Of a DNA stretch of 64,000 nt, positions 3,001 through 25,036 are shown one piece after another. The stretch covers positions 16,338 through 80,337 of the forward strand of contig JBAZMQ010000004.1 of the NCBI GenBank assembly GCA_041649675.1, written 5' to 3'. Source of the stretch: Patescibacteria group bacterium (GTDB taxonomy: Bacteria > Patescibacteriota > Patescibacteriia > Buchananbacterales > UBA6539). Below the pieces are notes generated by a model that ran no database searches, was not told the DNA's origin, and was given only the letters and a program-made list of their open reading frames with translations. Made by a program: the position numbers and the translations under genes. The number at the start of each line of letters is the position of its first letter. The first letter of the stretch is position 1.

Positions 3001-6000
3001 TGATTTGCAGCGCGATATAGATGATAATAAATTGCCCGATGATTGGAATATTTGTCAGTCGGCGGCCAATCCGAATGCTTTTTGCGCTAACTATCAAAGT
3101 GTATCGCTGAGACATGATAAACTTTATACTTTAACTGTTATTGGTACTGATGCTGCCAATGATAGTGATCGGCTTTGGTATAATACCGGCCAGCCTTTTA
3201 TTGAAATCAGTAATTGTCCGGCCATTACCTCTTTTGATCATTCAATGGTCAGAGTTTGTACCGATGCCGGTGGTTCGTTGGTTTTAAATGCTGGTAATTT
3301 GCCTACAGTCTGTACAGCCAACAGTGATTGTCCTGGTGGTCAAATTTGTAATGGCAATGTTTTAGTATTGCCTTGGGCTAAAGATAGTCGTAGTGCTGAC
3401 AATACGCCGAATTTACCTAATAGCAGGCAGTACTCCGGTCGTTTCTTTGTGCCGGAAAGGGATGAAATTTGTAGATTAGTTGTTCATACCAATTTATCAT
3501 TCCGGATTGATCAAACTGGAGCTTCTAATTACATCAATAAATATGTTAAAGAAATCAGGTTAGTCCCCACCGATGTTAGCTATGTTCTTAGTGACTCTGT
3601 TGATAAATTAAGTTGTAATGCGATTGTTAATCATGAGAATGGTTGTGTTTTGTTCAATGATCGCAGCAGTGTTAATTATAAGATTGGTGAAGATGATACA
3701 AGTTATTTAAATTTTGATGCCAATGTCAGTGGCCCAACCATTAACAACGGTATTGCCGTTAATCAATGTGCCGGCGTTTGCAATTCTAATGTTGTTTTGA
3801 AAGTTACACCTGACCGGATTTGTAATTCTTGGCTTTATTGTAGCAGCTATGCCACTTTTCCCGGCAGCGGCAGCCAGGGTGAGCGCAATGATTGTACCAG
3901 CATTGGTTTGTGCGATTCTTTGGATGACAACGGTAATTGCAGCGACTTTATTGCGCCCAAGAAAGAAGGTGCTCGCCAGGACTATTACCGTTCCCTTGAA
4001 GAGATCAGGGATTTGAGCGGCTACGTTAAGGCTGGATTAGATTTCACTCAACAATTGGCTAATGCCAAAATTCAAACTGATTTGCCAAAAATTATCCAAG
4101 GTGATTATCCTTATTCGGAAATGGTTCAAAAAGGCGGTATTGTATTCTCGCCTGGCACTAATTTTGAAAATGAGTTATCAAATTCGCTTAAGCCGTTTGG
4201 TTGGAATTTGAGATACCCGTTATTAACTGAACCGCCGGCTCAAAGTTTTTCAACTGCCGTTTGGCTCTTGACTTACTCTAAATTAATTGACAGTCCAATT
4301 GCCGCTCAAAAAGAAGGATTGGATTCTTCCGCTCCTGAAGGCTCAAAGTTTCTTAAACTTAGCGGTCCATACGTTGTTAATTCGGAAGAAATTGATGTGT
4401 TTGGTAGTTCCGAATACATTATGTCAGCCTTTATGAATACCAAAAATTTGCTTAAAGGTAGTGCCATAGTGGCCGTTGAACAATTTAATGATGAAGGAGC
4501 ATCATTAGGAATTAACCATGTATTAAACTTAGGGCGTTCAAGCGATTGGGTTTTTAGAGAAAACAGCTTTAGGACTAACTCGGCGACAACAAGAATAAAA
4601 ATTATTTTAAGTAATTGGGGACCAACTAGCCGAAGTGGTCATAATCCTTGGACTGGTGATACGGCCGACGTTATTCATGATGTTGTCGGTAGTTCTTATT
4701 TTGACGACATTAAAATAAAGCCGAATTTGCAGGTTGGCAATAACGCTTATGTTCCGCCAAGTTGCCGGGTTTATCCAGCGGCTGACTCTTTGAGTTGTGA
4801 TTATGTCACTTCGGACAATTTGCGTTTACGTGGCTGGCTTGGTTATTGCATTGAAACTGATCCGGCTAATCCGCAACAATGTTTGAATTGGTGGCCAATA
4901 GAATTAATTAATGGCGGCTTTGTTGATGAGCAGCCATTCATTACCCAAACGCCGCTTTACTATTGTTTAAAGGCTAAAGAAAATTTTTACGGTTTGCAAG
5001 CTTGTTTATTTAGAACAGATAGCACCCGTTGCGCTTCGGTCGGTGCCGGTGCTACGGGCGCCCCATCGCCAAGAATTTTTAATTGGGCAGTACCAACTGC
5101 TTGGCAGCTGGAAAGATGGCAAATTGTTAAATTAAGAATGATTACCTCGACTGCTGGTTGTCAAACCGAAGCTTGCGGCGGCGCCTTTACTCAGGTAAAC
5201 TTTTTACCTGATCCTAAAGGTAAAGACTCTACGCTTTTTATTAATGGTTCTAAGGGTTGGCAAGCCCATCTTAAATTTGGTACTAATAATAGGTTAGAAA
5301 GTATTGATTTCAATATCGGCGGATCAAATTGTATTTGTCCAGATGCTGATATTACAATTGAAGCCAGGAAGGAATGGTGTCAGATTCTGGTTCAAACCGT
5401 TACGCCTTTTGGTCAAAGCCGACCTTGGTGGAGCCGGATTTCCAATAACAGCGGTTCGACTTATACTGTCCCAGGCCTAAACTATCTTTATAATTTTGAT
5501 ATCGCGCCATACGGTGCGGTGGTACCGTCTTTGCCGGTAGAAAATCCAGCCGCCTGGAATTCAAGTTCTTATGCCGGGGTTGGACCACTGTGGGTGGCTT
5601 CGCCTGACCGGATTAATTTTAATACTCCGTTTCAAGCCAGGGCGGGAATTCCTTATTCTTGCGATCAAACTTCTGCCAAATATGGCAGCTTCAATTGTGC
5701 TTATCCGCCTCAGAGCACTGGTATTGCCAATAAAATTAACAATAAATCCGACCAGCTAGTGACCGCCGAGGTTAAAGGTATGGATAATTTAAAGCGGCTT
5801 TTTGTCCGTAATTATGGCAGTTGGCAGTATCAAGGTGACGGAGTTTGCAAAGATGTGGTAACCAATGAAATTGTAACTCAGGACGGTCGGGAAATCAGCT
5901 GTGCTTGTCCGGAAAGTTCCTGCAATGCCGAAACCAATAATTTTAAAATTTGCGGTTATGTTGACGAAGATGCTTTAGACAGAGGTTTTCCGGGTGTTTG

Positions 6001-7923: not shown

Positions 7924-10900
7924 ATGAAAACGATTCCGCGACAATTTAAATTCAAAAAAACCGTGGTTTTGGTATTCGCAGCAGTTTTACTGTCTTCTGT
8001 TGCTTTTAGTGTTTTGCCGGGCTTAGCTTTGAATTTTCAAACCGCCGACCCACTTGAAAAGACCTTGGCAGTTTTACAGGTAACCCCGGTCAGCGCCGCT
8101 GGTGAGCAAACCGAGTCCAAGGATAACGATACCGATAGTTTTTTTGTCACCGCTGTTGGCTGGGTGGTTGAAAAGGCAGTTACTTTGGAAGGTTTTGTAA
8201 TCACTACTGAAACTAAAATCTTGATTTTTTTCTTAAAATATAATGGTTTTGTTAAAGCCAAGGCCGTGGTAATCGGTTGGACTTTAGTAAGGGATGTTTC
8301 TAATTTATTTTTTGTTTTGGTTTTATTGGTTATTGCCCTGGCCACAATTTTAAGGATTGAAGCTTACAATTTCAAGCGGTTATTGCCAAAAATTTTGCTG
8401 ATGGCGGTTTTAATTAATTTCAGCCGTTTAATTTGTGGCTTTATCATTGATTTTGCCCAGGTGATAATGATGAGTTTTGTTGCGGCCTTTGTTAAAATTG
8501 GAACCGGTGGTAATTTGTACGCTGTTTTGCATATCAATGACATTCTATATAGTACTTATGATGTCCAGACTAAGGCTAATACTGAGCAGGGAATTAGTCC
8601 TACGGCCATAGTGGTCAGCGGAATTTTGGCAGTTTTCTTGTTACTGGTTGCTTGTATTGTAATTTTTACCATGATGACTGTGATTATCATGAGAATGATT
8701 ATGCTTTGGATGCTGGTGGTGCTTTCACCGTTACCTTATATTCTTTCAGCCATTCCTAAAGCTGAGCGGTATGCTCAGCAATGGTGGCAGGAATTTAGCA
8801 AATATGTCATTGTTGGTCCAATTTTGGCGTTTTTCCTTTGGCTGACTTTTGCGGTTGCTTCCACTGACCGAGAGGGTTCAATTGGCGGTGAACAAATTGG
8901 CTTGGGTGCAACCGGTTTAGATTCACTAAAAACTTCTTTAGAAACAACTGATAAGGATACAAGCGGCCAAACCAATCAGCCAATAACCGAGGAAGATAAT
9001 AACGGAATTTTTACCGGGATTGGCCAAGTGGAAAATATGCTGTCCTTGATTATCGGGATTGGCATGCTAATGGCCGGTTTAATGATTACTCAGCAGCTGG
9101 GCGTGGCTGGCGGCCAAATGGGCGGAGCGGCAATGTCAAAAATGAAAAGCTTAGGCACCTCATCGCTTAGAAGTGTAGGCGGACTTATTGGCACAGGAGC
9201 CAAGACCTTAGGCAAAGCGCCTTTTCAATATATCGGTAGAAAAGTTAATGAAGCAGTTTATGACGATAGGTTACCAGCCTGGGTCAATCCGGCAGCAATG
9301 TATCGGGGTTGGGTGGCTCGACGCGAGGCTTTGTATACCAAGGCTAAAGAAGGTGCCGCTCTAGGTGGCCAAGAAATGTTTGAAAAAGCATTTACCGGCG
9401 TGGCTCAGCCTCGGCGGTTACAGATGAAAATAGCCGATTCACAAAAATACGCTTCGGAATATTTATTTTTACCAAAAGAAAAATTGGCCAACTATGCCGC
9501 TAATTTATACAAGCAATATCAAACCCATAAGACGCCGGAAATGCGAGCTAAGCTAAGAGGGGTGGCTCAAACTGCCTTTAGAAACGGGTTTGAAGATGAT
9601 GTAATGGATCAAGAGATTTTTCGTAATATGGCGCCAATTGATCCCAGAACCAATATGCCTCTCCACTTAGAAAAGGAACATTATGAGAAAGTGTGGCATA
9701 ACATTTTAGGTGATCATGAGGCCGGTGCATATACGGCCGCAACCGGTGACGAAATAGCTCATGCCACTAAACATTTTGGTGTGGCTGGATTAACTCAAGC
9801 TAACAACGTAACAGGTGATATTGCTTGGAATGATTATGATGAAAAAACTGGCAGATTTGAATGGGAAGAAATCGGGCCGGATGGCCGAAGTTATTTAAAA
9901 AAAGACGCCAATAAAGAAATCAAAAGAGCCAAAGAAGGGGGTAGGGTAGAACTAGCTGAAGCAATTAAAGAAGTTGGGCGAAATAGAAGTTCTTTTCATT
10001 ATCAGGGTATAACTGGAGTCCAAGATCGCAAGGATGCTAAGGGTGAAAAAATGAGAATTGCGGCGCCCTTTAGTGAATTAACAATGGATATGTTAAATTT
10101 ACAATTTAAAGGTCAGAGAGAAATTTTTCTTGGCGAACATTTTAATAGTAGAACTGCCATAGCTTTAGCCGGTGGAAAAATTGGTGACAGCACTTGTGAA
10201 TTTGAAGACAATGGCCTTACTCAAGTTTTGGCTGGTGGGGAGTATGCACCTCATCTATTAAGGAATATAGCCCTATTGGATGCTATTGAACCTTGGTTGG
10301 CTGTAGGTATGATTAAAAAAGTTGGCGGCAGCGAGACTGCCAAGCCAGAGAGTATAAAATATCGCACTGGTGATTGGGTTATGCCATTGCTAAGTTTACG
10401 TATAGCTAGGGACAGTGGTTTATTAGAAAAAATTCATAAGGAAACGGATCAAACTAAAAAAGAGCAGATGGAGCAGGATATGTTTAAACAATACGCTACA
10501 TATTCACCTCGGGCAGCTCAAGCCGCTGGTGCTCCTGGGCCGCAACCGTCACCTACTCCTGGCCCAACGCCTGGTGCTCTTGGGCCGCAACCGTCACCTA
10601 CGGCCGGTCCGTCTCCTGTGCCTTATTCAAGAATGGCCCAGGACTTTGATAGAGAAAAATTTGTCCGGACTAATCAAGCAGTTCATAGGTATGACAATGC
10701 CAATGACTTTTATAAATCTGATGAATACAAAAATGATCAGAATAAATATGAATCAGCGGTTGAGTATGCCAGGCACCGCGACGCTTTAAATCAAAAAGAA
10801 TTGGATCGGGTGAGGGGAACCAAAACTGCATCTACCACTAAAGCCGGTGCGCTGCAAGCCGGAGCTGGTATCAATTTCAGCGACCCTGAGTTACAAAAAG

Positions 10901-11781
10901 CTTATGGCGTTAATTCAGCCATGGATGCGGCATATTTTGAAGGAGAAAATAAAGATAAGGTTATTGAAATGCTTGCCGCTCAGTACTCTCATGATTTGGA
11001 AGCCCAAGGAATGGCGGTTGAAAAGATAAATGAACAAGTTGAGAAATTCAAGCAAGGTTTAAGAAATGCTAAAACTTTGCGGCTTCACAATAATGCCAGT
11101 TTAACTAGCCGGCTAGACCAGGCTCTTCATGAAAAAGCTCACGCTCAAACTATGGGTTTGGCTGATGAACAGTTAAATCAATTCTGGCAGTCACTCAGCA
11201 CAGACCAGCAGCAGCAGATTGAAACTGATATTAAATCAAAATATGGTAATAATATTGCTAGTAAACAAATGAAGCAGGAAGCAATCGCGGAAATGGCCGG
11301 GGTTGGCAAAGGAATTTATGCTCCAAGTGATAAGACTAAAGAAGTTCTAACCGGCTTAAACGTCAAAACTAGACCACAAGCCCAAGAAGATATTTCAAAG
11401 TTAGCACCAGTAGCTCAAAAAGATGTAGAAAAGGAAGGTGAAGAGCTCAAAAAAGCGGTTGCTGGATTTGACGACACCGCCATAGTTCAAGCTTTAGCTG
11501 GGATTGAAGGTATATTGGCTAACGTTGCTTCAACTTTGGATAAAATGCCAAAATCACCGGTTGAAAGCGGGGTCAAAGCTGATTTAAATAGATTGCTTGG
11601 TCAAGTTAGGGATCATCAGTCTGGTGCCGGTGGTGTTTTAGATCCTGGTTCAGTCAGCGGCTTACTGGCCAGTATAAATACTAATTTGAAATCTATTAAT
11701 GAACAATCAAAAAAAGAAAAACCATCGGGAACAGGTGAAGGAAAAATTCCGCCGATGCCGCCGAAGTTAAATAGAAAATAA
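7924..11781 (+). CDS. VirB6/TrbL-like polytopic membrane protein with a long hydrophilic C-terminal extension (1285 aa)
   Basis: N-terminal signal-like segment, then 5-7 TM helices (aa ~110-330) in an arrangement typical of VirB6/TrbL. A ~950-aa charged, coiled-coil-like tail carries the Pro-rich tandem repeat 'GPQPSPT(P/A)GP'. It lies immediately upstream of the VirB3/VirB4-like genes. Confidence 0.45.
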   Translation: MKTIPRQFKFKKTVVLVFAAVLLSSVAFSVLPGLALNFQTADPLEKTLAVLQVTPVSAAGEQTESKDNDTDSFFVTAVGWVVEKAVTLEGFVITTETKILIFFLKYNGFVKAKAVVIGWTLVRDVSNLFFVLVLLVIALATILRIEAYNFKRLLPKILLMAVLINFSRLICGFIIDFAQVIMMSFVAAFVKIGTGGNLYAVLHINDILYSTYDVQTKANTEQGISPTAIVVSGILAVFLLLVACIVIFTMMTVIIMRMIMLWMLVVLSPLPYILSAIPKAERYAQQWWQEFSKYVIVGPILAFFLWLTFAVASTDREGSIGGEQIGLGATGLDSLKTSLETTDKDTSGQTNQPITEEDNNGIFTGIGQVENMLSLIIGIGMLMAGLMITQQLGVAGGQMGGAAMSKMKSLGTSSLRSVGGLIGTGAKTLGKAPFQYIGRKVNEAVYDDRLPAWVNPAAMYRGWVARREALYTKAKEGAALGGQEMFEKAFTGVAQPRRLQMKIADSQKYASEYLFLPKEKLANYAANLYKQYQTHKTPEMRAKLRGVAQTAFRNGFEDDVMDQEIFRNMAPIDPRTNMPLHLEKEHYEKVWHNILGDHEAGAYTAATGDEIAHATKHFGVAGLTQANNVTGDIAWNDYDEKTGRFEWEEIGPDGRSYLKKDANKEIKRAKEGGRVELAEAIKEVGRNRSSFHYQGITGVQDRKDAKGEKMRIAAPFSELTMDMLNLQFKGQREIFLGEHFNSRTAIALAGGKIGDSTCEFEDNGLTQVLAGGEYAPHLLRNIALLDAIEPWLAVGMIKKVGGSETAKPESIKYRTGDWVMPLLSLRIARDSGLLEKIHKETDQTKKEQMEQDMFKQYATYSPRAAQAAGAPGPQPSPTPGPTPGALGPQPSPTAGPSPVPYSRMAQDFDREKFVRTNQAVHRYDNANDFYKSDEYKNDQNKYESAVEYARHRDALNQKELDRVRGTKTASTTKAGALQAGAGINFSDPELQKAYGVNSAMDAAYFEGENKDKVIEMLAAQYSHDLEAQGMAVEKINEQVEKFKQGLRNAKTLRLHNNASLTSRLDQALHEKAHAQTMGLADEQLNQFWQSLSTDQQQQIETDIKSKYGNNIASKQMKQEAIAEMAGVGKGIYAPSDKTKEVLTGLNVKTRPQAQEDISKLAPVAQKDVEKEGEELKKAVAGFDDTAIVQALAGIEGILANVASTLDKMPKSPVESGVKADLNRLLGQVRDHQSGAGGVLDPGSVSGLLASINTNLKSINEQSKKEKPSGTGEGKIPPMPPKLNRK
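10533..10599 (+). repeat. In-frame tandem direct repeat (period ~45 nt) that encodes the Pro-rich linker inside the VirB6-like gene
   Basis: 'ctgggccgcaaccgtcacctac' occurs twice (10533-10554 and 10578-10599). It translates to 'PGPQPSPTPGPTPGALGPQPSPTAGP'. Confidence 0.7.
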
Positions 11782-13206: not shown

Positions 13207-14379
13207 ATGGCAAAGAGTAATAAAAAGTACACTTTTACTTCAGAGTCGGTAACTGAAGGTCATCCCGATAAAGTCTGCGATCAAATTTCGGATGGTATTT
13301 TGGATGCAGCTTTAACTGATGATCCCAAATCTAGGGTGGCAATTGAAACCCTAGTCACTACCGGGTTAGTTGTTGTGGCCGGAGAAATGACTACCAGTAC
13401 TTATATTGATGTGCCAAAAGTGGTCAGGGGAATTATTAAGGATATTGGTTATACCGATCCGACTATTGGTTTTGATTGGGAAAATTGTGCGGTCGTAACT
13501 TCAATTGATGCACAAAGTCCGGACATCTCGCAAGGCGTTTCGGCTGGGCAAGGCCTTTTTAAAGAGCAAGGCGCTGGTGATCAGGGTATGATGTTTGGTT
13601 ATGCTACCAACGAAACTCCTGAATATCTGCCCTTACCGATAGTTTTGGCTCATAAACTCACCCAAACTTTGGCCGCAGTCAGAAAAAGTGGTCAATTAGC
13701 CTGGTTAAGACCGGATGGCAAATCCCAGGTTAGCGTTGATTATGCCGATGGCCAGCCGCAGCGGGTGGCAACAGTAGTTGTTTCCACTCAACATACCGCC
13801 GAGGTTGAACATGATGAAATTGAAAAAGAAATTATTGAAAAAGTGGTTAAACCGGTTTGCGGCCAATGGCTGGATAAGGATACAAAATATTATATCAATC
13901 CAACTGGAAAATTTATTATTGGTGGGCCTCATGGTGATACCGGCGTAACTGGCCGAAAAATTATTGTTGATACTTATGGCGGTCATGGCAGCCATGGTGG
14001 TGGTGCTTTTTCTGGCAAAGATCCGTCAAAAGTTGACCGGTCAGCTGCTTATATGGCTCGTTACATTGCTAAAAATATTGTTGCTTCCGGAGTGGCGTCA
14101 CAATGCGAAGTTCAGTTGGCATATGCTATCGGCGTGGCTGACCCGATTTCAATTTTAGTCAATACTGAAGGTACAGCTAAAGTTGATGAAGGAAAAATTG
14201 AGCAGGTTGTTAGAGAAGTCTTTCCATTAAAGCCAGCCGGAATAATTGAGCATTTAAAGCTTTTGCGGCCAATCTACCGAAAAACCACTTGTTATGGCCA
14301 TTTTGGCAGAAATGACGCTGATTTTACCTGGGAAAAAACCGATAAGGCTGATGAATTAAAGAAAGCTTTAGGTTTATAA
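13207..14379 (+). CDS. metK: S-adenosylmethionine synthetase
   Basis: Full-length match to MetK hallmarks: '[20 protein letters not shown]', '[30 protein letters not shown]' and 'DTYGG'. Confidence 0.95.
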
Positions 14380-14401: not shown

Positions 14402-15580
14402 ATGGCAGTTAATGATAATAAAAAAACCGATGATTTTTTTAGTGCCCTCGCTCAAGAGCAGCAAATTGAAAATCCATTTGCCACTGAAGAAATACTTTTT
14501 CGCGATGAAAATGGTGTTTTGAAGATTTTGAAGGGCGGGCAGGTTTTGGATTATACCCAAAATGGCGAGCAAAAAGATCAAACTGCTGCCCCGCTTCAGC
14601 CTGAGCCACTACCAGTTTTGCCAAAGCCAGAAGTCGTACCGTCGCCACCACTCAGTCAGCCAGTTTTGCCACCAATTCCTGTTGTGGAACCCATCCCAGC
14701 CCCAGCGCCGGTTACACCCAGTGAGCCATTAGGTCAGCCGCTGAACTTAGACGAAGAAATAGAGATGGTGATTAAAAAATCAGGCATTCATTTTACTGAT
14801 CAGCAGTTAGCTAAACGTTTCACCAGCATCATTACTTCCAGGCTTAAGCACATTCGCGATCAAGTCCAAACCAAAGAAGCACTTTTGAGTTCGCCCACGG
14901 CGGGTGGAATGGGATTTACTTCGGTCCAGGCCGATCGGATAATGCTTGCGATTAATCAAGTTCTGGATCAATTGAGTAATAAGCTAAGACAAGGAGTAAG
15001 CCAGGAACCATTTTCTGATTTACAACAGGAGGTCCAAAAGCTTTTAGCCCAACAGCCACTGGTTTCATCACCGCCAAAAATTGTTTTCTCCGCCCCAGCT
15101 AAGCCAGTTGAACCGGCAAAAGTTACACCAATTAAACCAGTAGCGGTTGAAAAACCGCAGCCAGTAGCCGCTCCCAAGCCACCTGCGTTACCTCAAATGC
15201 CAGCTGCCAATACTTTTACCAAGCCAAAAATTGAAGATGTTAGGTTTGAGCCAAAATTAACCGGGCCAATTGAAGAAATCCATTCCATGACTTTGATTGA
15301 TTTTCGTCGCTTAGGTTCCACGCCTCAGCAGGCAATTGAAAAGATTATTGAAAAAATTGATTTATTGGAAGAGGAATCATTTACTAAAAAAACCCAGGCA
15401 ATAAAGGCCTGGAAAGAAAATGAAGTTTACCGTCTTTATTTAGCCTTGGGCGATCAAAGCATGGAAGAAAGAAAGCCGATTGCTGAAATAATTGAAGAAA
15501 AACAAAAAGCAAATCAGCCCACCTTGACCTCTCAAGAAGTAGAAGCAATAATTGAATTAAATCAAAAATTAAGATATTAA
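14402..15580 (+). CDS. Proline-rich hypothetical protein (392 aa)
   Basis: ORF with long P/V/E-rich low-complexity tracts ('PLQPEPLPVLPKPEVVPSPPLSQPVLPPIPVVEPIPAPAPV'). No catalytic motifs. Confidence 0.55.
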   Translation: MAVNDNKKTDDFFSALAQEQQIENPFATEEILFRDENGVLKILKGGQVLDYTQNGEQKDQTAAPLQPEPLPVLPKPEVVPSPPLSQPVLPPIPVVEPIPAPAPVTPSEPLGQPLNLDEEIEMVIKKSGIHFTDQQLAKRFTSIITSRLKHIRDQVQTKEALLSSPTAGGMGFTSVQADRIMLAINQVLDQLSNKLRQGVSQEPFSDLQQEVQKLLAQQPLVSSPPKIVFSAPAKPVEPAKVTPIKPVAVEKPQPVAAPKPPALPQMPAANTFTKPKIEDVRFEPKLTGPIEEIHSMTLIDFRRLGSTPQQAIEKIIEKIDLLEEESFTKKTQAIKAWKENEVYRLYLALGDQSMEERKPIAEIIEEKQKANQPTLTSQEVEAIIELNQKLRY

Positions 15581-15625: not shown

Positions 15626-16084
15626 ATGCAGCAATTTGTTGTTCCCCAATTTATTGACGTTGAAGACAAAGTCATCGGACCGATAACTGTTCGTCAGTTT
15701 ATTATCCTTTTGGTTGGCGGCGGTTTAATCTTTGTTTCCTATAAATTGGCTGATTTCACCTTGTTTTTACTGGAATTTGTCATCATCGGTTTAGTTACCT
15801 TTGTTGTTGCCTTTATTAAAATTAATGGGCGCCCAATTCATTATTTTTTGCTTAATATTATTCAAACTTTAAAAAGACCCAGAAAACAAGTTTGGCAAAA
15901 ATTATTTTCTAATAGCGAGTTAAAAGGTTATGCTAAAACCAAAACCCCGACTTTACCACCACAGATTAGGACTAAAAATAAGGTTAGAGCTTCAAGATTA
16001 GCCGAACTTGCCTTAGTAGTTGATACTGGCGGGATTTATCAGGGTGAAAAAGAGCCACCAACCAGTTTAAATAATTTAATATGA
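15626..16084 (+). CDS. Small two-TM membrane protein, PrgI/VirB3-like
   Basis: 152 aa with two hydrophobic helices. It sits immediately upstream of the VirB4-like genes with an ATGA overlap, the usual VirB3-VirB4 gene order. Confidence 0.4.
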   Translation: MQQFVVPQFIDVEDKVIGPITVRQFIILLVGGGLIFVSYKLADFTLFLLEFVIIGLVTFVVAFIKINGRPIHYFLLNIIQTLKRPRKQVWQKLFSNSELKGYAKTKTPTLPPQIRTKNKVRASRLAELALVVDTGGIYQGEKEPPTSLNNLI

Positions 16085-16761
16085 AATCAAAAAAATTAGC
16101 CGGAAGTAAACCTAGCGCTGCCACCCAAAAATACTTGGATATTGCTGAAATCCGAGAGGATTGTGTTATTTTAAAGGATGGCACCCTGCGCGCGGTATTA
16201 TTAGTTTCCAGCATTAATTTTTCTCTAAAATCCGAAGACGAACAGAACGCCATAATTTCTGCTTACGTTAGTTTTTTAAATTATTTGGAATTTCCCTTAC
16301 AAATTGTCATTCAGTCACGCAAATTAGATATTGATGGCTACCTTAATCGGCTTAAAAAAATTGAAAAAGAGCAGACCAATGAATTACTGCGGATGCAAAC
16401 TGCTGAATACCGGCAATACATTACCGAGCTGGTTGAATTGGGAGATATAATGACTAAGCGTTTTTATATCATTGTACCGTATAATCCTTTGTCGGATAAA
16501 CAAAAATCGTGGGCTTCAAGATTTTTTAGTCTTTTTTCCGCTGCTTCCGAAGTAAAGCTTAGTCAGGAAGCGTTTATTAAAAGGCGGCGGGATTTAATGC
16601 AGCGAGTTGACAATATTGTCAGTGGTTTGGGTAGTATGAGTTTAAAAACAGTTTTATTGGATACCCAAAGTTTAGTTGAGCTTTACTATAATACTTATAA
16701 TCCGGATGTTTATAATAAAGAAAAAATGGTTGAAGTAAATAAACTACGAGTTGAAGAATAA
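16081..16761 (+). CDS. VirB4/TrbE N-terminal domain encoded as a separate ORF (226 aa)
   Basis: 'YLDIAEIREDCVILKDGTLRAVLLVSSINF...SEDEQNAIISAYVSFLN' resembles the conserved N-terminal region of VirB4/CagE/TrbE. Its stop TAA (16759-16761) lies 1 nt before the ATG of the ATPase ORF, in a different frame. Confidence 0.45.
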   Translation: MKSKKLAGSKPSAATQKYLDIAEIREDCVILKDGTLRAVLLVSSINFSLKSEDEQNAIISAYVSFLNYLEFPLQIVIQSRKLDIDGYLNRLKKIEKEQTNELLRMQTAEYRQYITELVELGDIMTKRFYIIVPYNPLSDKQKSWASRFFSLFSAASEVKLSQEAFIKRRRDLMQRVDNIVSGLGSMSLKTVLLDTQSLVELYYNTYNPDVYNKEKMVEVNKLRVEE

Positions 16762-16762
16762 T

Positions 16763-18685
16763 ATGGCAATAAAACCCCAAGAAATAATTAAAGAGGAGAA
16801 ACTGGCGGCTTTGGCAAACCAACAGCAGGCAGATGAACAGCAGCGGCAAAAAGAAAAACAGGATTTAGAAGAGCAAAAAATTCTTTTGGAAGAAGAACGG
16901 GTTTATCGCGAAGGCTTGGTTTCGATTAAAGATTTGATCGCGCCGGCGGCTTTGGAAGTAACTCCGACCTATATTAAAATTGGTGATCAGTTTGCCAGAA
17001 CCTTGTTTGCTTTTAGCTATCCTCGTTATATCGCTGTTGGCTGGTTTGCGCCGATAATTAATTTAAGCGTGCCCTTGGACATTGCCATGTATTTTTATCC
17101 GGTTAAATCCAACATTATTTTAAAGCAATTAAGAAATAAGGTTGGTGCTTTGGAAGCCCAAATTTTATCCGATCGCGAGAAGGGAGCACCTCGTGACCCG
17201 ATTCGGGAAACCGCTTTGCGCGATATTGAAAAATTAAGAGATGATTTGACTCAGGGGATTGAACATTTTTTTCAATTTGGCCTTTACGTTACAATTTATA
17301 GCGAGACTAAAGAGAAATTGGATAATTTAACTTCTGACGTTGAGGCTTTGTTTGGCTCTCGGCTGGTTTTTTCTAAAAAAGTTTTGTATCAAGCCGAACA
17401 GGGTTTTAATTCAACCTTGCCCTTGGGTAATGACGAATTAATGATTGGTTTTAACATGAATTCTTCGCCAGCGGCTTCCTCTTTCCCTTTTATTTCGTCT
17501 GAATTGAGTTCTGATGAGGGCGTTTTGTATGGTATTAATCGCCATAACAATAGTTTGATATTATTTGATCGTTTTTCTTTACAAAATGCTAATACAGTTG
17601 TCTTTGCTACTTCGGGTGCCGGTAAAAGTTATACTATCAAATTGGAAGTTTTGCGTACCATGATGTTTGGTACGGACGTTATTGTTATTGATCCGGAAAG
17701 AGAATATAAACATCTGTGCGATGCCGTTGGCGGGACTTATGTTAATATTTCCTTGAGCTCGGAAGCAAAAATTAATCCTTTTGATTTGCCGCGGGCAGTT
17801 GGTGATCAGCGTTCGGCCGATGTTATCCGGGGTGCGGTTATTACGTTAAAAGGTTTAGTTCGTTTAATGCTTGGCAAGCTGACTCACCAAGAAGATTCAA
17901 TCATTGATCGGGCCTTATTAGAAACTTACGCTAAAAAAGATATTACCGCCAGTTCTGATCTAAGTAAAATTGAAGCGCCAATCATGCAGGATTTTCAGGA
18001 TATTTTGGAAGGGATGGAAGGTGGTTCGGATTTATCTTTACGTTTAAAAAAATATACCCAAGGGACATTTGCCGGTTTGTTTAATCATCCGACCAACGTT
18101 GATATGAAAAATCAGTTGATTGTTTTTTCCGTTCGGGACTTGGAAGATGAGCTGCGGCCAATGGCAATTTATACGATTGTTAACTATATTTGGAATGTTG
18201 TCCGTTCGCAACTTAAGAAAAGAATTTTAATTATTGATGAAGCCTGGTGGCTGATGCAAAACGAAGATTCAGCTAAATTTATTTTTGCCTTGGTCAAACG
18301 CTGCCGAAAATACTATTTAGGGGTGACTAATATTACTCAAGATGTCAATGACTTTTTGCTTTCGCCTTATGGTCAAGCAATTGTCAACAATTCCGCTTTG
18401 CAATTATTAATGCGCCAATCACCGTCGGGAATTGATTTGGTCCAAAAAACCTTTATGCTAACCGAAGGCGAAAAATATTTGCTTTTGGAATGCGGTGTTG
18501 GTGAAGGAATATTTTTTGCCGGCGATAAACATGCGGCCATTAAAGTCGTTGCCTCTTACACTGAAGATCAGCTAATCACCTCTGATCCCAGGCAAATTTT
18601 GCAAATTGAAGAAGCTAAAAAAGAATTTGATTTGGCTTCACAGAACCAGGAGGTTGAAGAAGTTGAGGAACAAATATCCCAGTAG
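16763..18685 (+). CDS. virB4: VirB4/TrbE/CagE-family type IV secretion ATPase (C-terminal ATPase portion)
   Basis: Walker A 'ATSGAGKSYT', Walker B 'ILIIDEAWWL' and overall VirB4-like architecture. The ATG at 16763 is preferred over the TTG at 16751 used by the ORF track. Confidence 0.75.
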   Translation: MAIKPQEIIKEEKLAALANQQQADEQQRQKEKQDLEEQKILLEEERVYREGLVSIKDLIAPAALEVTPTYIKIGDQFARTLFAFSYPRYIAVGWFAPIINLSVPLDIAMYFYPVKSNIILKQLRNKVGALEAQILSDREKGAPRDPIRETALRDIEKLRDDLTQGIEHFFQFGLYVTIYSETKEKLDNLTSDVEALFGSRLVFSKKVLYQAEQGFNSTLPLGNDELMIGFNMNSSPAASSFPFISSELSSDEGVLYGINRHNNSLILFDRFSLQNANTVVFATSGAGKSYTIKLEVLRTMMFGTDVIVIDPEREYKHLCDAVGGTYVNISLSSEAKINPFDLPRAVGDQRSADVIRGAVITLKGLVRLMLGKLTHQEDSIIDRALLETYAKKDITASSDLSKIEAPIMQDFQDILEGMEGGSDLSLRLKKYTQGTFAGLFNHPTNVDMKNQLIVFSVRDLEDELRPMAIYTIVNYIWNVVRSQLKKRILIIDEAWWLMQNEDSAKFIFALVKRCRKYYLGVTNITQDVNDFLLSPYGQAIVNNSALQLLMRQSPSGIDLVQKTFMLTEGEKYLLLECGVGEGIFFAGDKHAAIKVVASYTEDQLITSDPRQILQIEEAKKEFDLASQNQEVEEVEEQISQ

Positions 18686-18708: not shown

Positions 18709-19308
18709 ATGAGTAAGCGAAATAAAATAATTATTGCCATCATCGCTGTTGTTGTAGTAATATTATTGATAATAATTATTGCCTTGTTTCTAAATCAAAG
18801 AAGATCAGCCCGGTTGGTAAACATTAATACTAATCAAGCCGGACAGCTGCCAGCCAATCAACCGGCCTCAACGGCTGGGTTAAATAAATCCCAAGAGTCA
18901 CCAGTCAAGGAAAAAAAATTAGAGGCCAGCTTGAAGGCGATTGCTTCAACCTTTGCTGAACGTTTTGGTAGTTACTCCAATGAAGGCAATTACTCTAACC
19001 TTGAAGCGCTAAAAGATTTAATGACTGACAGGATGAAAGCTTGGGCTCAAAGCTATCAGGCTTCACAACAAAAACCTAGTACCAATGATTCAATCGTTTA
19101 TTATGGTATCACCACTCAAGCTTTGTCGGTTCAAATTTCAAATTTTGACCAGGCAGTTGGTACGGCTGAAGCTATAGTTGTTACTCAACGGCAAGAAACG
19201 AAAAACAATACTACTAATCCTAAAGTTTATTACCAAAATTTAAAATTACAATTATTAAAAACGGCAGCCGGTTGGAAAGTTGATGCCGCCGAATGGCAGC
19301 AGCCATAG
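18709..19308 (+). CDS. N-terminally membrane-anchored protein, possibly VirB8/TcpC-like
   Basis: Single N-terminal TM ('IIIAIIAVVVVILLIIIIALFL') followed by a ~165-aa domain rich in beta-strand-like sequence. Position directly after virB4. Confidence 0.35.
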   Translation: MSKRNKIIIAIIAVVVVILLIIIIALFLNQRRSARLVNINTNQAGQLPANQPASTAGLNKSQESPVKEKKLEASLKAIASTFAERFGSYSNEGNYSNLEALKDLMTDRMKAWAQSYQASQQKPSTNDSIVYYGITTQALSVQISNFDQAVGTAEAIVVTQRQETKNNTTNPKVYYQNLKLQLLKTAAGWKVDAAEWQQP

Positions 19309-19369: not shown

Positions 19370-20029
19370 ATGAATACTATTAAAAAATTAATTTTTGATT
19401 TAATTTTTCCGATTCAATGTTTGGGTTGCAAGAAAGAAGGCGAGTGGCTGTGCCAAGAATGTTTTGACCGCATAGAAATAAATCCAGCCCAGTTAAATCC
19501 AGCCCAAAAAAATCAATTATTTTCAGGAATTTGGGTAGTAACGGTCAAAGATCAGACGTTAGTTAATACAATATTGCATAATTTTAAGTACAATCTAGTC
19601 CTTGATTTGGGTGAAATTTTGGGCAGTTTAGCGATAAAATTTTTAACCAGGCTAATTTTACAGGATAAAAATTTGCATTTTGATTATATTGTGGCTGTAC
19701 CGCTATCTAAAAAAAGAAAGTTGTGGCGCGGGTTTAATCAGTCTGAAGTCATTGCGCAAAAAATCAGCCAGCAGTTTGTTTGGCCCAATAATTTTTCTTT
19801 AATTTATCGGCACTATCATAACCGGCCTCAGGTTGGATTAAATGCTTTGCAGCGGCAGGAAAATGTTAAAGGAATATTTCGGGCGGACAATAATGAATCA
19901 TTGGAAAATAAGAAAATTTTAATAATTGATGATGTTTTAACTACCGGGGCAACTTTAAATGAAAGTGCTAAAGCGCTGAAGGCAGCTGGGGTTAAAGAAA
20001 TTTGGGGTTTGGTGATAATTAGAGGTTGA
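19370..20029 (+). CDS. comF: ComF-family protein (phosphoribosyltransferase-like competence protein)
   Basis: N-terminal C..C...C..C zinc-finger-like cluster ('CLGCKKEGEWLCQEC') and PRTase motif 'ILIIDDVLTTGATL'. Confidence 0.75.
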   Translation: MNTIKKLIFDLIFPIQCLGCKKEGEWLCQECFDRIEINPAQLNPAQKNQLFSGIWVVTVKDQTLVNTILHNFKYNLVLDLGEILGSLAIKFLTRLILQDKNLHFDYIVAVPLSKKRKLWRGFNQSEVIAQKISQQFVWPNNFSLIYRHYHNRPQVGLNALQRQENVKGIFRADNNESLENKKILIIDDVLTTGATLNESAKALKAAGVKEIWGLVIIRG

Positions 20030-20900: not shown

Positions 20901-20917
20901 CGAGTCAGGTGGGCGGG

Positions 20918-20969
20918 GAGCGCAAGCTTGCGGAGCTTGAGGCCGTAGGTTCGATTCCTACTGGGGACG
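20918..20969 (+). repeat. Tandem direct duplicate of the 3' 52 nt of the tRNA-Arg gene (20849-20900), 17 bp downstream of the intact tRNA
   Basis: Exact 52-nt identity 'gagcgcaagcttgcggagcttgaggccgtaggttcgattcctactggggacg'. Confidence 0.9.
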
Positions 20970-20995
20970 CCATTGTAAAATTATTTTTAGCCAAG

Positions 20996-23059
20996 ATGAT
21001 GATTGATTTAACAACACCAGTAGCAGCGGTTAGTCGGGTTGGTAAAACTACGGCTAGCCGTTTAAAGAGATTAGGGATTGAGACCGTTTCGGATCTCATT
21101 TTTTATTACCCTTTTCGCTGGCAGGATTTTAGTCAAATTTCCGATATTTCCGAGCTGCAACCAATTGATGCGGCAACGGTTAAAGTAAAAATTCAGATAA
21201 TTAGTAATCGTCGCAGCCCGGCTAAAAGAAAAATGTTAACCGAGGCTTTGGTTGCTGACCAAACGGGGAGTATAAAAGTTATTTGGTTTAATCAGCCGTT
21301 TTTGACCAAGATTTTGCAGCCTGGAGACGAGGTTTACCTGTCGGGCAAAGTTGATTTTGATCGTTATAATTTACAATTAGTCAATCCGGTCTATGAAAAA
21401 GTTTCAGCCGATACTACCCATACGGCTAGGCTGGTACCCGTTTATTCGGTAACCAATAATTTAACCCAAAAGCAAATTCGGTTTTTAGTTAAATCGGTTT
21501 TGCCGCTTGCGACTTTAATCGCTGATTGGTTGCCGCCCGAGATTAGCCAGGAGAATAACTTAGTTAATTTGAACTTAGCTCTAAACCAAATTCATTTTCC
21601 CAAAGATAAAAAGATTTTAGATTTAGCGATAAATCGTTTAAAATTTGATGAGTTATTTTTATTTCAGTTGTCTGTTTTGGCCAGTAAATTAGATATAGCC
21701 TTAAGCCAGTCGGAAGCAATTGATTTTTTTGAGTCTCAAACTAAAAATTTCGTAGCTTCTTTGCCTTTCACTTTGACCAATGATCAAAGAAAAGTTGCTT
21801 GGCAAATAGTTTCTGATTTACAAAAAAATCAGCCAATGAATCGGCTTTTGCAAGGAGATGTTGGTTCGGGCAAAACTGTGGTGGCGGCAATTGCTATGTT
21901 TAATGTCGCTTTGAACAAAAAACAAGCGGTTTTAATGGCCCCAACCGAAATTTTAGCCAGTCAGCACTATCAAAATTTGTTAAACCTGTTTAAGGATAGC
22001 AATCTAAACATTGCTTTATTTACCAGAAGCCAAAGGCAAGTAAACGGACGAGTTGAGACCAAAAAGAAAATATTGTCTGATTTAAGCTCGGGTGATATTC
22101 AATTAGTTATTGGCACCCATGCTTTAATTCAGCAAGATGTTGAGTTTTCTAATCTAGTTTTAGCCATAGTTGATGAGCAGCATCGTTTTGGTGTTAATCA
22201 GAGAAAAATTTTAAGGCAAAATTCGGGCGATAAAAAAATAACTCCTCACTTGCTTTCAATGACCGCCACGCCAATCCCGCGCTCGTTGGCTTTAACTTTG
22301 TATGGTGATTTGGATTTATCTATAATTAGAGAGATGCCCAAATCCCGAAAAAAAATAATTACTAAAGTTGTTGATCCAAAAAATCGTAAGCAAGCCTATG
22401 AATTTGTTCGCAATCAGGTTAAAACCGGCCGGCAAGTTTTTGTTATTTGTCCGCTAATTGATTTGTCCGATAAACTAGGGGTTAAGGCCGTGACTGATGA
22501 ATTTGAAAAATTAAAGAAAGAAATCTTTCCTGACTTAAGAATAGAAATGCTGCATGGAAAATTAAAGCCAGCTGATAAGGAACGGATTATGGCTAATTTT
22601 TTGGCTAAAAAAAGCGATATTTTGGTTGCTACTTCGGTGGTTGAAGTGGGGGTTGATATACCTAACGCTTCAGTCATGGTAATTGAAGGCGCTGAAAGGT
22701 TTGGCTTAGCTCAGCTACACCAATTCCGCGGTCGGGTTGGACGATCAATTTATCAATCATACTGTTTTTTATTTACCGAAAGTCAAACGGAAAAAACCAA
22801 AGCGCGGCTAAATGCCTTGGTTACGGCCAAGGACGGATTTGAACTGGCTGAACTTGATTTGCAGTTTCGTGGACCAGGTGAGATTTATGGCACGATACAA
22901 TCGGGATTTCCCGAATTTAAAATTGCTCAGCTGATTGATTATGATATTATTATTAAAGCCAAATTAGCCGCTGAAAAAGTATTGGCCTTAGGTTTGGATA
23001 AGTATCCATTGTTAAAACAAAAAATGGAGCAGACTAATAAAGCTGTCCATTTGGAGTAG
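20996..23059 (+). CDS. recG: ATP-dependent DNA helicase RecG
   Basis: Wedge-domain region, Walker A 'GDVGSGKTVVA', 'VDEQHRFGV' and helicase C motifs. The start is taken at ATG 20996 (MMIDLTTP...). The track ORF starting at 20909 runs through the tRNA repeat and is rejected. Confidence 0.9.
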   Translation: MMIDLTTPVAAVSRVGKTTASRLKRLGIETVSDLIFYYPFRWQDFSQISDISELQPIDAATVKVKIQIISNRRSPAKRKMLTEALVADQTGSIKVIWFNQPFLTKILQPGDEVYLSGKVDFDRYNLQLVNPVYEKVSADTTHTARLVPVYSVTNNLTQKQIRFLVKSVLPLATLIADWLPPEISQENNLVNLNLALNQIHFPKDKKILDLAINRLKFDELFLFQLSVLASKLDIALSQSEAIDFFESQTKNFVASLPFTLTNDQRKVAWQIVSDLQKNQPMNRLLQGDVGSGKTVVAAIAMFNVALNKKQAVLMAPTEILASQHYQNLLNLFKDSNLNIALFTRSQRQVNGRVETKKKILSDLSSGDIQLVIGTHALIQQDVEFSNLVLAIVDEQHRFGVNQRKILRQNSGDKKITPHLLSMTATPIPRSLALTLYGDLDLSIIREMPKSRKKIITKVVDPKNRKQAYEFVRNQVKTGRQVFVICPLIDLSDKLGVKAVTDEFEKLKKEIFPDLRIEMLHGKLKPADKERIMANFLAKKSDILVATSVVEVGVDIPNASVMVIEGAERFGLAQLHQFRGRVGRSIYQSYCFLFTESQTEKTKARLNALVTAKDGFELAELDLQFRGPGEIYGTIQSGFPEFKIAQLIDYDIIIKAKLAAEKVLALGLDKYPLLKQKMEQTNKAVHLE

Positions 23060-23689: not shown

Positions 23690-25036
23690 TTATTCTAGAT
23701 ACTTTATCGCTTCGGCCAAAGTTTTAACCTGATAAATTTTTGCTTTGGTCGTTATCTTTTCTTTAGTGTAGGGGATAATCAAAGTTTTAAATCCCAGCTT
23801 TTCGGCTTCAGCAATTCTTTTGGCCATTTGATTTACCATTCTAACTTCGCCACCTAAACCCACTTCGCCAAAAGCAATGGTGTCAGGTGAGATTAATTTA
23901 TTTTTGGCCGCTGAAATTATTGCCAAACAAACGGCCAAGTCAATCGCTGGTTCGCTGACTTTTAAGCCGCCAACTAAATTTAAATAAATATCCTGATTAG
24001 CCAGTTTTAGGCCTAGTCGGCGAGATAAAGTTGCTGCTAAAAGTTGCAGCCGGTTTAAGTCAAAACCTTGGCTTTTCCTTTGGGGATAGCCAAAACTAGT
24101 AATATTAACCAAGGCTTGAACCTCCAATAAAAAGACGCGCGAACCTTCAAGAGCAGCAGTAATTATAGTACCAGCCGCCGGATTTTTATCGGTTAAAAAA
24201 ATTGCCGCGGGGTCAGTCACTTCAATCAAACCAACTCCTTGCATTTCAAAAATACCAACTTCAAAAGTTGACCCGAAACGGTTTTTAACGCTTCGTAAAA
24301 TTCTAAAAGAATGATATTGGTCACCCTCTAAATATAAAACCACATCAACTAAATGCTCCAAGGTTTTTGGTCCGGCCACTTCGCCAAATTTTGTTACGTG
24401 GCCAATTATTATAATCGTGATATTATTTTTTTTAGCAACCTCAAGGAGTTTAGTGGTGCAGATTCTGACCTGATTGATGCTGCCACCACTGCCCGGTGAT
24501 TCGTTTGAGTAGATTGTTTGGATTGAATCAATGATAGCCAGCGTTGGTTTTTGCTCTAAGATTGTGGCCACAATTGTTTCAACATTAGTTTCGCCTAAAA
24601 AGCCTAAATGGTTGGTTTTAACTTTAAGCCGGTCAATTCTAGTCTTGATTTGTTCAGCTGATTCTTCGCCGGAAACATACAAAATTTGACTGTTAATGTT
24701 TTGCAAAATTTGTAAAACCAAAGTTGATTTTCCAATTCCCGGTTCGCCGCCAAGCAAAATTAAAGAACCACTGACCATGCCACCACCCAAAACTCGGTCA
24801 AATTCGGAAATGCCGGTTTGGAGCCGTTTAAAGTTGGTAATTTTTATATTATCAAAAGAAATTATCTTTGCACCTGGCATTGTTAGCGGCGATTTTACGT
24901 TTTTGTTGGTGCTATTAGAAACCTGTGATTTTTCTAATGTTCCCCATTTGCCGCATTCAGGGCACCGACCCTGCCATTTTGGCAACTGAGCATCACAATT
25001 GGAACAAATATAGATTTCTGAAATTCCTTTAGCCAT
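23690..25036 (-). CDS. radA: DNA repair protein RadA/Sms
   Basis: N-terminal zinc finger 'CSNCDAQLPKWQGRCPECGKWG', RecA-like Walker A 'GGEPGIGKSTL' and a C-terminal Lon-protease-like domain. Confidence 0.9.
   Translation of the reverse strand: MAKGISEIYICSNCDAQLPKWQGRCPECGKWGTLEKSQVSNSTNKNVKSPLTMPGAKIISFDNIKITNFKRLQTGISEFDRVLGGGMVSGSLILLGGEPGIGKSTLVLQILQNINSQILYVSGEESAEQIKTRIDRLKVKTNHLGFLGETNVETIVATILEQKPTLAIIDSIQTIYSNESPGSGGSINQVRICTTKLLEVAKKNNITIIIIGHVTKFGEVAGPKTLEHLVDVVLYLEGDQYHSFRILRSVKNRFGSTFEVGIFEMQGVGLIEVTDPAAIFLTDKNPAAGTIITAALEGSRVFLLEVQALVNITSFGYPQRKSQGFDLNRLQLLAATLSRRLGLKLANQDIYLNLVGGLKVSEPAIDLAVCLAIISAAKNKLISPDTIAFGEVGLGGEVRMVNQMAKRIAEAEKLGFKTLIIPYTKEKITTKAKIYQVKTLAEAIKYLE

Follow-up and report, generated by a model that had tools for sequence, protein, structure and literature searches.

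The VirB4 ATPase of the window (the whole 64,000-nucleotide stretch that was analysed) is encoded in two adjacent genes, and we consider it very probable that these represent an intact, ancient two-gene VirB4, part of a prgI(virB3)-trsD-virB4 operon on the chromosome of a Buchananbacteria-like Patescibacteria genome. The sequence-only reading had listed a genuine two-polypeptide VirB4 as one of four options without choosing among them; it is this option that is strongly favored by the profile complementarity of the two products, by thousands of homologues and by 77/77 related loci. The features discussed below are as follows.

15626..16084, + strand: prgI / virB3-like gene, 152 aa (PF12666 PrgI 2.6e-9, TcpE 4e-4)
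16081..16761, + strand: trsD-like gene (ORF1), 226 aa, a stand-alone homologue of the VirB4 N-terminal module
16759..16765, + strand: stop-start junction TAA-T-ATG, 1-nt spacer, +1 frame
16763..18685, + strand: virB4, short form (ORF2), 640 aa, with NF045971, P-loop_TraG and 4AG5 matches
17606..17629, + strand: Walker A / P-loop ATSGAGKS, ORF2 residues 282-289, read from translation and alignment
18224..18241, + strand: Walker B-like ILIIDE, ORF2 residues 488-493, from a motif scan

The PrgI protein has a hydrophobic N-terminal part, with segments at residues 16-71, and the prgI stop shares 4 nt (ATGA) with the start of ORF1. Of 80 related loci, 79 also have a same-strand PrgI homologue, whatever its position relative to trsD. 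The neighboring genes are of housekeeping type (SAM synthetase, ComF, RecG, RadA-like protein, ClpB-like protein and LigA), and neither a relaxase nor a coupling protein was found among the neighbors scanned. The locus is chromosomal and apparently not conjugative, and it combines elements of the Patescibacteria type IV secretion system (T4SS), namely a chromosomal virB4 with PrgI/VirB3 and TrsD in a Patescibacteria genome.

ORF1 starts with ATG and ends with TAA at 16759-16761, which is followed by a single T (16762) and by ATG at 16763-16765 (...gttgaagaaTAAtATGgcaata...), placing ORF2 in the +1 frame relative to ORF1 [(16763-16081) mod 3 = 1]. The two ORFs, the 1-nt gap and the frame change first seen in the sequence alone were thereby reproduced at exactly the same coordinates. 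The ORF2 frame is open upstream as far as 16739, with a TAA at 16736-16738, so that ORF2 would comprise 644 aa if begun at TTG (16751..18685) and 640 aa if begun at ATG 16763. Because the deposited protein (P0121) also has 640 aa and matches ORF2 with 100% identity and coverage, and because virB4 in the relatives opens with ATG GCx (Met-Ala) immediately behind the stop of the trsD-like gene, ATG 16763, previously named as a possible start, is better than TTG. The TAA-T-ATG junction is likely a site of translational coupling.

ORF1 encodes a protein of the TrsD/"TraC-like" kind that folds like the N-terminal region of VirB4. Its residues 21-133 align with positions 21-143 of the 201 in the NCBIfam TrsD/TraD model (NF041427; 2.4e-8), although the 34.1 bits obtained are far below the curated cut-off of 200 bits, placing ORF1 outside the curated subfamily as a homologue; judged by these scores, it is only a remote relative of the staphylococcal TrsD prototype. 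It also matches NCBIfam VirB4_plasma (positions 93-238/894, 8.9e-12), and PF26593 TraC-like is the precomputed assignment of an identical protein (P0001). A PDB sequence search with ORF1, as a single sequence or as a 60-sequence profile, returned nothing meaningful, and only the fold comparison worked: the AF2 model of ORF1 (pLDDT 85.9) retrieved TrwK/VirB4 chains exclusively at E<0.01 in Foldseek PDB, and the top 14 matches were all such chains (prob 1.0, query-normalised TM 0.36-0.51). The match is placed on the N-terminal part of TrwK by the sequence-profile coordinates, as the Foldseek output carries no target coordinates. These results bear out the earlier description of the 226-aa ORF as VirB4-N-terminal-like, and by both defining features ORF1 belongs to the class of stand-alone VirB4 N-terminal modules (~200-250 aa). 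Compared with L003/L004, ORF1 shows pN of 0.13-0.15 and pS of ~0.8, values given instead of dN/dS on account of the saturated synonymous sites, and it is apparently under purifying selection. MAFFT twice placed TrsD homologues on the N-terminal part of ORF2; when a TrsD profile was compared with the first 270 aa of VirB4 homologues, hhalign gave a probability of 0.2% and an E of 0.34, and the idea that TrsD is a paralogue of the ORF2 N-domain arising by internal duplication was rejected as an alignment artefact.

ORF2 begins with a charged, poorly conserved N-tail (about residues 1-46); the second half of the VirB4 N-domain follows, and then a C-terminal ATPase domain. It scores 359.8 bits (E 3e-107) against NF045971, the CD1110-family VirB4 model, passing the curated cut-off of 325, and it also matches P-loop_TraG (1.7e-30), the VirB4 C-terminal domain of PDB 4AG5 (7e-48 across residues 248-606) and TrwK (2e-10). 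The consensus of the VirB4 rows keeps SGxGKSY for Walker A and IDEAWW for Walker B. The N-terminal region is not complete on one polypeptide as it is in NF045971, since the ORF2 match starts at position 171 and ORF1 supplies positions 2-119. ORF2 is a CD1110-family VirB4 ATPase without the N-terminal region that ORF1 matches.

The comparison with full-length VirB4 that had been proposed for the two ORFs, made here with profiles, places ORF1 on the N-terminal positions and ORF2 on the remainder. On the 752 positions of the CD1110 model (NCBIfam), ORF1 occupies 2-119 and ORF2 171-730; on the 894 positions of the mycoplasma VirB4 model NF045975, they occupy 93-238 and 260-892, respectively. By these coordinates, ORF1 and ORF2 together form a colinear cover of full-length VirB4. 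Matches to the 375 positions of Pfam TraC_F_IV, both weak and below the Pfam cut-off, assign 15-176 to ORF1 and 275-373 to ORF2. On these positions the break lies inside the classical N-terminal domain of VirB4 and does not coincide with the border of the N-domain and the ATPase domain. A rare natural fusion of 898 aa (P0382), present in identical form on 5 contigs that come from at least 3 samples and found in the same PrgI context, joins an ORF1-like part (residues 2-223) through a P/A-rich linker (224-321) to an ORF2-like part (322-892, corresponding to ORF2 residues 47-615). The split point thus lies in a roughly 100-aa proline/alanine-rich linker that is disordered and length-variable in fused relatives, and with the gene boundary in such a linker, no folded residues are lost. 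The AF2 model of concatenated ORF1+ORF2, built on an unpaired 28-row alignment, was too poor for an interface to be read from it (pLDDT 55.3, pTM 0.36).

The split is shared widely. There are 6,179 ORF1 homologues, of which the best 120 have 207-251 aa and mostly exactly 226, while ORF2 homologues mostly have ~606-678 aa, with none reaching the fused length; the closest of them are all Patescibacteria MAG proteins. Among the best 150 representatives at 50% identity, a single fusion occurs. In all 77 GTDB species loci with both genes, the trsD stop lies where the ORF1 alignment ends (query residues 222-226), and no fused orthologue was found among them; this search was run with the closer alignment A2, the diverse alignment A1 having no stretch conserved enough. 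The virB4 gene follows the trsD-like gene at -8 to +509 nt in these loci, with junctions of 20 nt or less in 47/76 and overlaps in 5, and the 1-nt stop-N-ATG arrangement is found again in 10 further species-level loci. Many TrsD homologues bear long disordered tails, P/Q-rich and 100-200 aa in length.

Seen only locally, two neighboring ORFs that differ in frame and are separated by 1 nt could suggest a recent frameshift in a once-fused virB4, now a pseudogene or decaying, and an artificial split of one gene by a sequencing or assembly indel could draw only on the same 1-nt spacing and on the A/T-rich sequence of the junction. However, either explanation predicts fused relatives and 0/77 were fused, by which both are refuted. 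The related loci, whose inspection had been suggested, all show the two-gene form with the stop at the homologous position, and the length of ORF1 homologues is near constant across 65-100% identity. Together with the low non-synonymous divergence against saturated synonymous sites, an intact Walker A and B and an ORF2 score above the curated VirB4 cut-off, this leaves next to no probability for pseudogenisation. An error at a homopolymer, which had also been raised, is credible to an equally negligible degree: three assemblies agree on the junction letter for letter, namely the window/NCBI MAG, one from ENA (k141_765930) and the Logan assembly of SRR8542065, which may have reads in common; an in-frame TAA persists after deletion of the T or of any single base; and in dozens of independent metagenomes, relatives are split in the same way but with spacers that differ.

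The last of the four options, programmed +1 frameshifting or stop-codon bypass that would yield a fused full-length VirB4 besides the short products, fits the 23 nt over which the ORF2 frame is open upstream of the junction (16739-16761), where a +1 shift would produce the fusion, and P0382 indicates that a fused protein is viable in nature. But such a mechanism, as in genes of the prfB / dnaX type, requires a conserved frame relation and a conserved slippery or stimulatory site at the overlap, and across the 77 loci the virB4 frame relative to the trsD-like gene is 0, +1 or +2 in 26, 30 and 21 cases, with spacing equally unconserved, which refutes it. In addition, the virB4 frame is closed across the trsD-like stop in 29/77 loci (opening more than 3 nt beyond the start of that stop codon), the printed junction sequences are dissimilar and have no common slippery motif, and a conserved ATG GCx start belongs to ORF2 itself. 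We regard recoding as extremely improbable.

It is also conceivable that the TrsD-like protein and the VirB4 N-terminus have a common origin, but that the former now works on its own as an accessory factor (assembly chaperone, regulator or adaptor) and is no stoichiometric part of the ATPase. PMC12102498 assigns no function to TrsD and reports that in Gracilibacteria its gene does not adjoin virB4, and the tails of 100-200 aa on many homologues suggest extra roles. Against this, the two genes are tightly linked, and in most loci their junction is short or an overlap, the profile positions missing from ORF2 are exactly those that ORF1 supplies, and P0382 is a natural fusion in the same gene context; we therefore hold an accessory role to be unlikely.

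Returning to the two-gene VirB4, several known systems can be compared with it. The MPF-FATA prototype, TrsD-TrsE of staphylococcal pGO1/pSK41, likewise has a small (~200 aa) VirB4 N-terminus homologue, but its plasmid is conjugative and carries a relaxase and a coupling protein; the present locus is chromosomal and apparently not conjugative. In pGO1/pSK41, trsE, the VirB4-like ATPase gene, is presumably directly downstream of trsD. Plasmids of Firmicutes (Pontibacillus NZ_CP062975, Sulfobacillus pY0017 and B. cereus p30090_2) carry VirB4 split in the same manner: an ORF1 homologue of 227-274 aa is immediately upstream of, or overlaps, a VirB4-like ATPase of ~600-620 aa; the pairs are 274 aa + 621 aa ("VirB4-like, CD1110 family") in Pontibacillus and 231 aa + 606 aa in Sulfobacillus. 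The small proteins share 24-30% identity with ORF1 and are annotated only as hypothetical, and genes for VirD4, TrbL and a transglycosylase accompany them on the plasmid. Full-length VirB4 proteins (TrwK of R388, PDB 7O41/8RTB; the CD1110 family; mycoplasma ICE NF045975) are single polypeptides, unlike the pair described here; the fold of TrwK is matched by the ORF1 model, and 4AG5 and TrwK are matched by the C-terminal domain of ORF2.

In Patescibacteria, the trsD-virB4 pair was reported by Quinonero-Coronel et al. 2025 (PMC12102498), with the same chromosomal PrgI/VirB3, TrsD homologue and VirB4 of the monoderm MPF-FATA lineage; the present locus is one more instance with no substantive difference. 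The same paper finds TrsD to be remotely homologous to the N-terminus of VirB4 and more abundant than any other T4SS component of Patescibacteria, with 1,664/2,272 of its copies adjoining virB4. It lists as essential a TrsD homologue adjoining virB4 in Ca. Southlakia epibionticum, a cultivated Patescibacterium for whose epibiotic growth T4SS genes of this kind are reported to be essential (also Wang et al. 2023, PMC10633639). A two-gene VirB4 composed of a TrsD-like protein and an ATPase is thus already described in Patescibacteria and in some Gram-positive plasmids. In the portion of PMC12102498 covered, neither the gene boundary nor frame statistics nor fused forms come up; the pIP501 papers checked make no mention of TraD being a piece of VirB4, and TrsD is not named in the main text of Guglielmini 2014. 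One small point goes beyond the literature covered: the split point could be mapped to a disordered linker, through the natural fusion and the frame and spacing statistics.

We propose that ORF1 carries the first module of the VirB4 N-domain, and ORF2 the rest of the N-domain with the Walker A/B ATPase domain. The two products would be made separately, probably with translational coupling at the TAA-T-ATG junction, and may re-associate non-covalently. In the VirB4 assembly that powers the T4SS, the TrsD-like piece would then provide the part that lies next to the membrane and faces VirB3/PrgI. Fission at the disordered linker might also be adaptive and not neutral, allowing the stoichiometry of the TrsD-like N-module to be set independently of the ATPase, but we find this adaptive version unlikely. 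If it held, the N-module might cap only the membrane-proximal VirB4 subunits (compare how central and outer VirB4 differ in the R388 machine), the P/Q-rich TrsD tails might bring a lineage-specific function, and the re-fusion in P0382 and the plasmid cases would represent repeated switching between two working designs.

The concern that the split might signal a non-functional apparatus is not supported, as the two-gene form is conserved with Walker A and B intact, and the VirB4 apparatus at this locus looks intact from its sequence. Since the VirB4 motor is not broken, the T4SS-like apparatus here should be scored as intact. Where a ~640-aa "DUF87/ATP-binding protein" of Patescibacteria or Firmicutes is directly preceded by a ~226-aa "hypothetical protein" (PF26593), the latter should be annotated as the VirB4 N-terminal piece and not as a frameshift.

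The VirB4 homologue and the small gene preceding it are arranged in the window as follows.

15626-16084, + strand: PrgI/VirB3-like gene
16081-16761, + strand: ORF1, a trsD-like gene for a stand-alone VirB4 N-terminal module
16763-18685, + strand: ORF2, virB4

The sequence-only reading had described two ORFs separated by a 1-nt gap and a frame change, and this description holds: TAA at 16759-16761 is followed by T at 16762 and ATG at 16763-16765 (...GTT GAA GAA TAA t ATG GCA ATA...). In the ORF list the pair appears as 16081..16761 (226 aa) and 16751..18685 (644 aa counted from TTG), and the ORF2 product from ATG 16763 has 640 aa. The ORF2 frame is +1 relative to ORF1 and opens upstream only from 16739. 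Because P0121, a deposited protein with the same sequence as ORF2, has 640 aa, ATG 16763 is the annotated start too, and ATG GCx directly after the upstream stop is likewise the virB4 start in relatives. The identical junction is present in two more assemblies of the same organism.

ORF2 passed the curated cut-off (325) of the NCBIfam "VirB4-like conjugal transfer ATPase, CD1110 family" with 359.8 bits, and it also matches P-loop_TraG, the VirB4 C-terminal domain crystal structure 4AG5 (7e-48) and TrwK, the full-length VirB4 of R388. The P-loop ATSGAGKS (ORF2 residues 282-289) and the Walker B motif ILIIDE (488-493) are both kept.

Positions of VirB4-related profile models matched by the two products
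CD1110 VirB4 (NF045971), length 752: ORF1, 2-119; ORF2, only 171-730
Mycoplasma ICE VirB4 (NF045975), length 894: ORF1, 93-238; ORF2, 260-892
Pfam TraC_F_IV, length 375: ORF1, 15-176; ORF2, 275-373 (both weak, below cut-off)

In the TrsD/TraD model (201 positions), ORF1 matched positions 21-143. Modelled from 60 diverse homologues, the ORF1 structure reaches a confident pLDDT of 85.9, falling below 50 only at residues 219-226. TrwK/VirB4 chains of the R388 T4SS account for all 14 of its top PDB matches (E 2.6e-4 to 5e-3, probability 1.0, query-normalised TM 0.36-0.51, about 190-205 aligned columns), the first match after them having an E of 0.17. The proposed resemblance of ORF1 to the VirB4 N-domain is thus borne out by both profiles and fold. 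Since ORF1 matches the front of the VirB4 models that is absent from ORF2 and shares the fold, the two products are complementary pieces of one VirB4, and the break falls within the classical N-terminal domain rather than where that domain meets the ATPase domain.

A word-indexed search returned 6,179 ORF1 homologues, of which the best 120 (65-100% identity) have 207-251 aa, mostly exactly 226, and all carry PF26593 "TraC-like"; most of the best 120 ORF2 homologues have 606-678 aa, and one partial sequence among them has 555. Comparison of ORF1 with the two closest loci gave a pN of 0.13-0.15 and a pS of about 0.8, synonymous sites being saturated. We then analyzed junctions by script in 80 loci from different GTDB species, 3 of which lie on contigs that stop before virB4. 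All 77 remaining loci, those carrying both genes, have the two-gene form, with the trsD-like stop codon where the ORF1 alignment ends (query residues 222-226) and virB4 next on the same strand. A PrgI homologue, counted regardless of its position relative to trsD, occurs on that strand in 79 of the 80 loci. The two genes are spaced by -8 to +509 nt (at most 20 nt in 47 of the 76 junctions with an identifiable start, overlapping in 5), virB4 lies in relative frame 0, +1 or +2 in 26, 30 and 21 loci, respectively, and the 1-nt "stop-N-ATG" recurs in 10 further species.

These patterns decide among the four explanations that had been offered. A recent frameshift or pseudogene would predict fused relatives, and 0 of 77 are fused; a sequencing or assembly error does not fit the same architecture recurring with different spacers in dozens of independent metagenomes; and programmed frameshifting is contradicted by a frame, spacing and junction motif that are all unconserved. 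Moreover, 29 of the 77 loci have a virB4 frame that is closed across the trsD-like stop, since it becomes open only more than 3 nt beyond the first base of that codon. The conserved split with varied spacing and frame therefore excludes all three. In three in-frame loci (L011, L052 and L069), TGA is the sole stop between trsD and virB4. Genetic code 25 reads TGA as Gly, as in Gracilibacteria, and if an organism of this type used it, trsD and virB4 would be read as a single gene; the titles of the records point to no such lineage, and close relatives of these loci have a TAA stop and other frames.

An exhaustive search of 50%-identity representatives found 2,554 matches to ORF1, with a single fusion-length protein (898 aa) among the 150 best. 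This rare natural TrsD-VirB4 fusion, P0382 (L087 3001-5697, also L088 and L089), is encoded without change on five contigs, which come from at least three sequencing runs, and has the same context, the stop of an upstream PrgI-like gene overlapping its start, which marks it as a genuine gene. Its residues 2-223 align to ORF1 (37% identity) and residues 322-892 to ORF2 residues 47-615 (51% identity), and the linker between them comprises about 100 low-complexity, proline/alanine-rich residues. The first 46 or so residues of ORF2 are charged, K/E/Q-rich and poorly conserved, and tblastn alignments of relatives start anywhere from ORF2 residue 1 to 53. On the TrsD side, several homologues of 417-443 aa (P0254, P0258, P0292) bear long, apparently disordered P/Q/A/T-rich C-terminal tails that resemble the linker. 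The fusion linker, the low-confidence end of the ORF1 model and the variable ORF2 start together place the boundary within a connector that is disordered and variable in length, and the junction has lost no folded residues.

The split extends beyond Patescibacteria. In plasmids, tblastn with ORF1 hit 75 records, chiefly from Bacillus and Clostridium but also some from haloarchaea. On a Pontibacillus plasmid, the gene for a 274-aa hypothetical protein shares 11 nt with that for a 621-aa "VirB4-like conjugal transfer ATPase, CD1110 family," and Sulfobacillus pY0017 encodes a 231-aa protein followed after 2 nt by a 606-aa VirB4-like protein, within a conjugative cluster that also has genes for VirD4, a transglycosylase and a TrbL-family protein. 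In Bacillus cereus plasmid p30090_2 (L085 3468-7396), the gene for a 227-aa ORF1 homologue ends 3 nt before a hypothetical ORF of 864 nt (287 aa), and about 700 nt beyond that comes a gene for a group II intron reverse transcriptase/maturase; from its position, the 287-aa ORF may represent the beginning of a virB4 cut by the intron. A Rubrobacter plasmid carries the ORF1-like region within a 1,344-aa ATP-binding protein, so both split and fused forms are found across the monoderm (MPF-FATA) T4SS lineage. With complementary homology, the conserved split and these Firmicutes plasmids, the first alternative, a genuine two-polypeptide VirB4 as in some Gram-positive systems, is right and the three others are refuted.

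The window is chromosomal, and its neighboring genes include those for SAM synthetase, ComF, RecG, RadA-like and ClpB-like proteins, LigA and a PilB-type ATPase.

26-7915, + strand: very large ORF, at least 2,629 aa; CBM_4_9 carbohydrate-binding match only
7924-11781, + strand: very large ORF, 1,285 aa; several hydrophobic segments in the first ~400 residues; no family found
13207-14379: SAM synthetase gene
14402-15580, + strand: proline-rich protein, 392 aa, immediately upstream of prgI; no family match
18709-19308, + strand: protein of 199 aa, encoded immediately after virB4; single hydrophobic segment at the N terminus (residues 1-34); no family in Pfam or NCBIfam
19370-20029: ComF-family protein
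20909-23059: RecG
23690-25036, - strand: RadA-like protein with zinc ribbon, KaiC-like and ChlI domains
39667-41400: PilB-type T2SSE ATPase

By position and topology, the 199-aa protein could be a VirB8-like bitopic component; VirB8 homologues occur almost only in class ABY1 (PMC12102498). The two large upstream ORFs may be surface or VirB6-like T4SS partners, and the SAM synthetase gene is wedged between them and the gene for the 392-aa protein. DNA-uptake and recombination genes (ComF-family, RecG and RadA-like) and a pilus gene (PilB-type) are all found near the T4SS core.

Both products would come from one operon, probably coupled by termination-reinitiation at TAA-T-ATG, because short or overlapping junctions dominate. 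The TrsD-like piece and ORF2 would then assemble noncovalently into a VirB4-like unit, the former probably membrane-proximal and VirB3-facing like the TrwK N terminus in the R388 structures. What is established is that each gene has its own stop and start, that the homologies of the two products are complementary, that ORF1 has the VirB4 N-domain fold and ORF2 intact ATPase motifs, that the arrangement is strongly conserved and that a natural fusion exists. A model of concatenated ORF1 and ORF2 from an unpaired alignment gave pLDDT 55 and pTM 0.36, too low to inform on an interaction. The main surviving rival, that TrsD is now an independent accessory factor, seems to us quite improbable.

According to Quinonero-Coronel et al. 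2025 (PMC12102498), TrsD, a remote homologue of the VirB4 N terminus, outnumbers every other T4SS component in Patescibacteria, with 2,272 homologues, 1,664 of them virB4 associated and typically accompanied by PrgI/VirB3, and they list the virB4-adjacent homologue of "Ca. Southlakia epibionticum" as essential. The T4SS cluster of that organism is essential and Gram-positive-like, without recognisable relaxase or coupling protein (Wang et al. 2023, PMC10633639). Our modest additions are the statistics on frame and spacing, the use of the natural fusion to place the split in a disordered linker, and the examples from Firmicutes plasmids. The two-gene VirB4 is real, correctly observed, biologically intact and already described, and prgI-trsD-virB4 in this Buchananbacteria-like MAG is one more instance of the published Patescibacteria pattern (PMC12102498).
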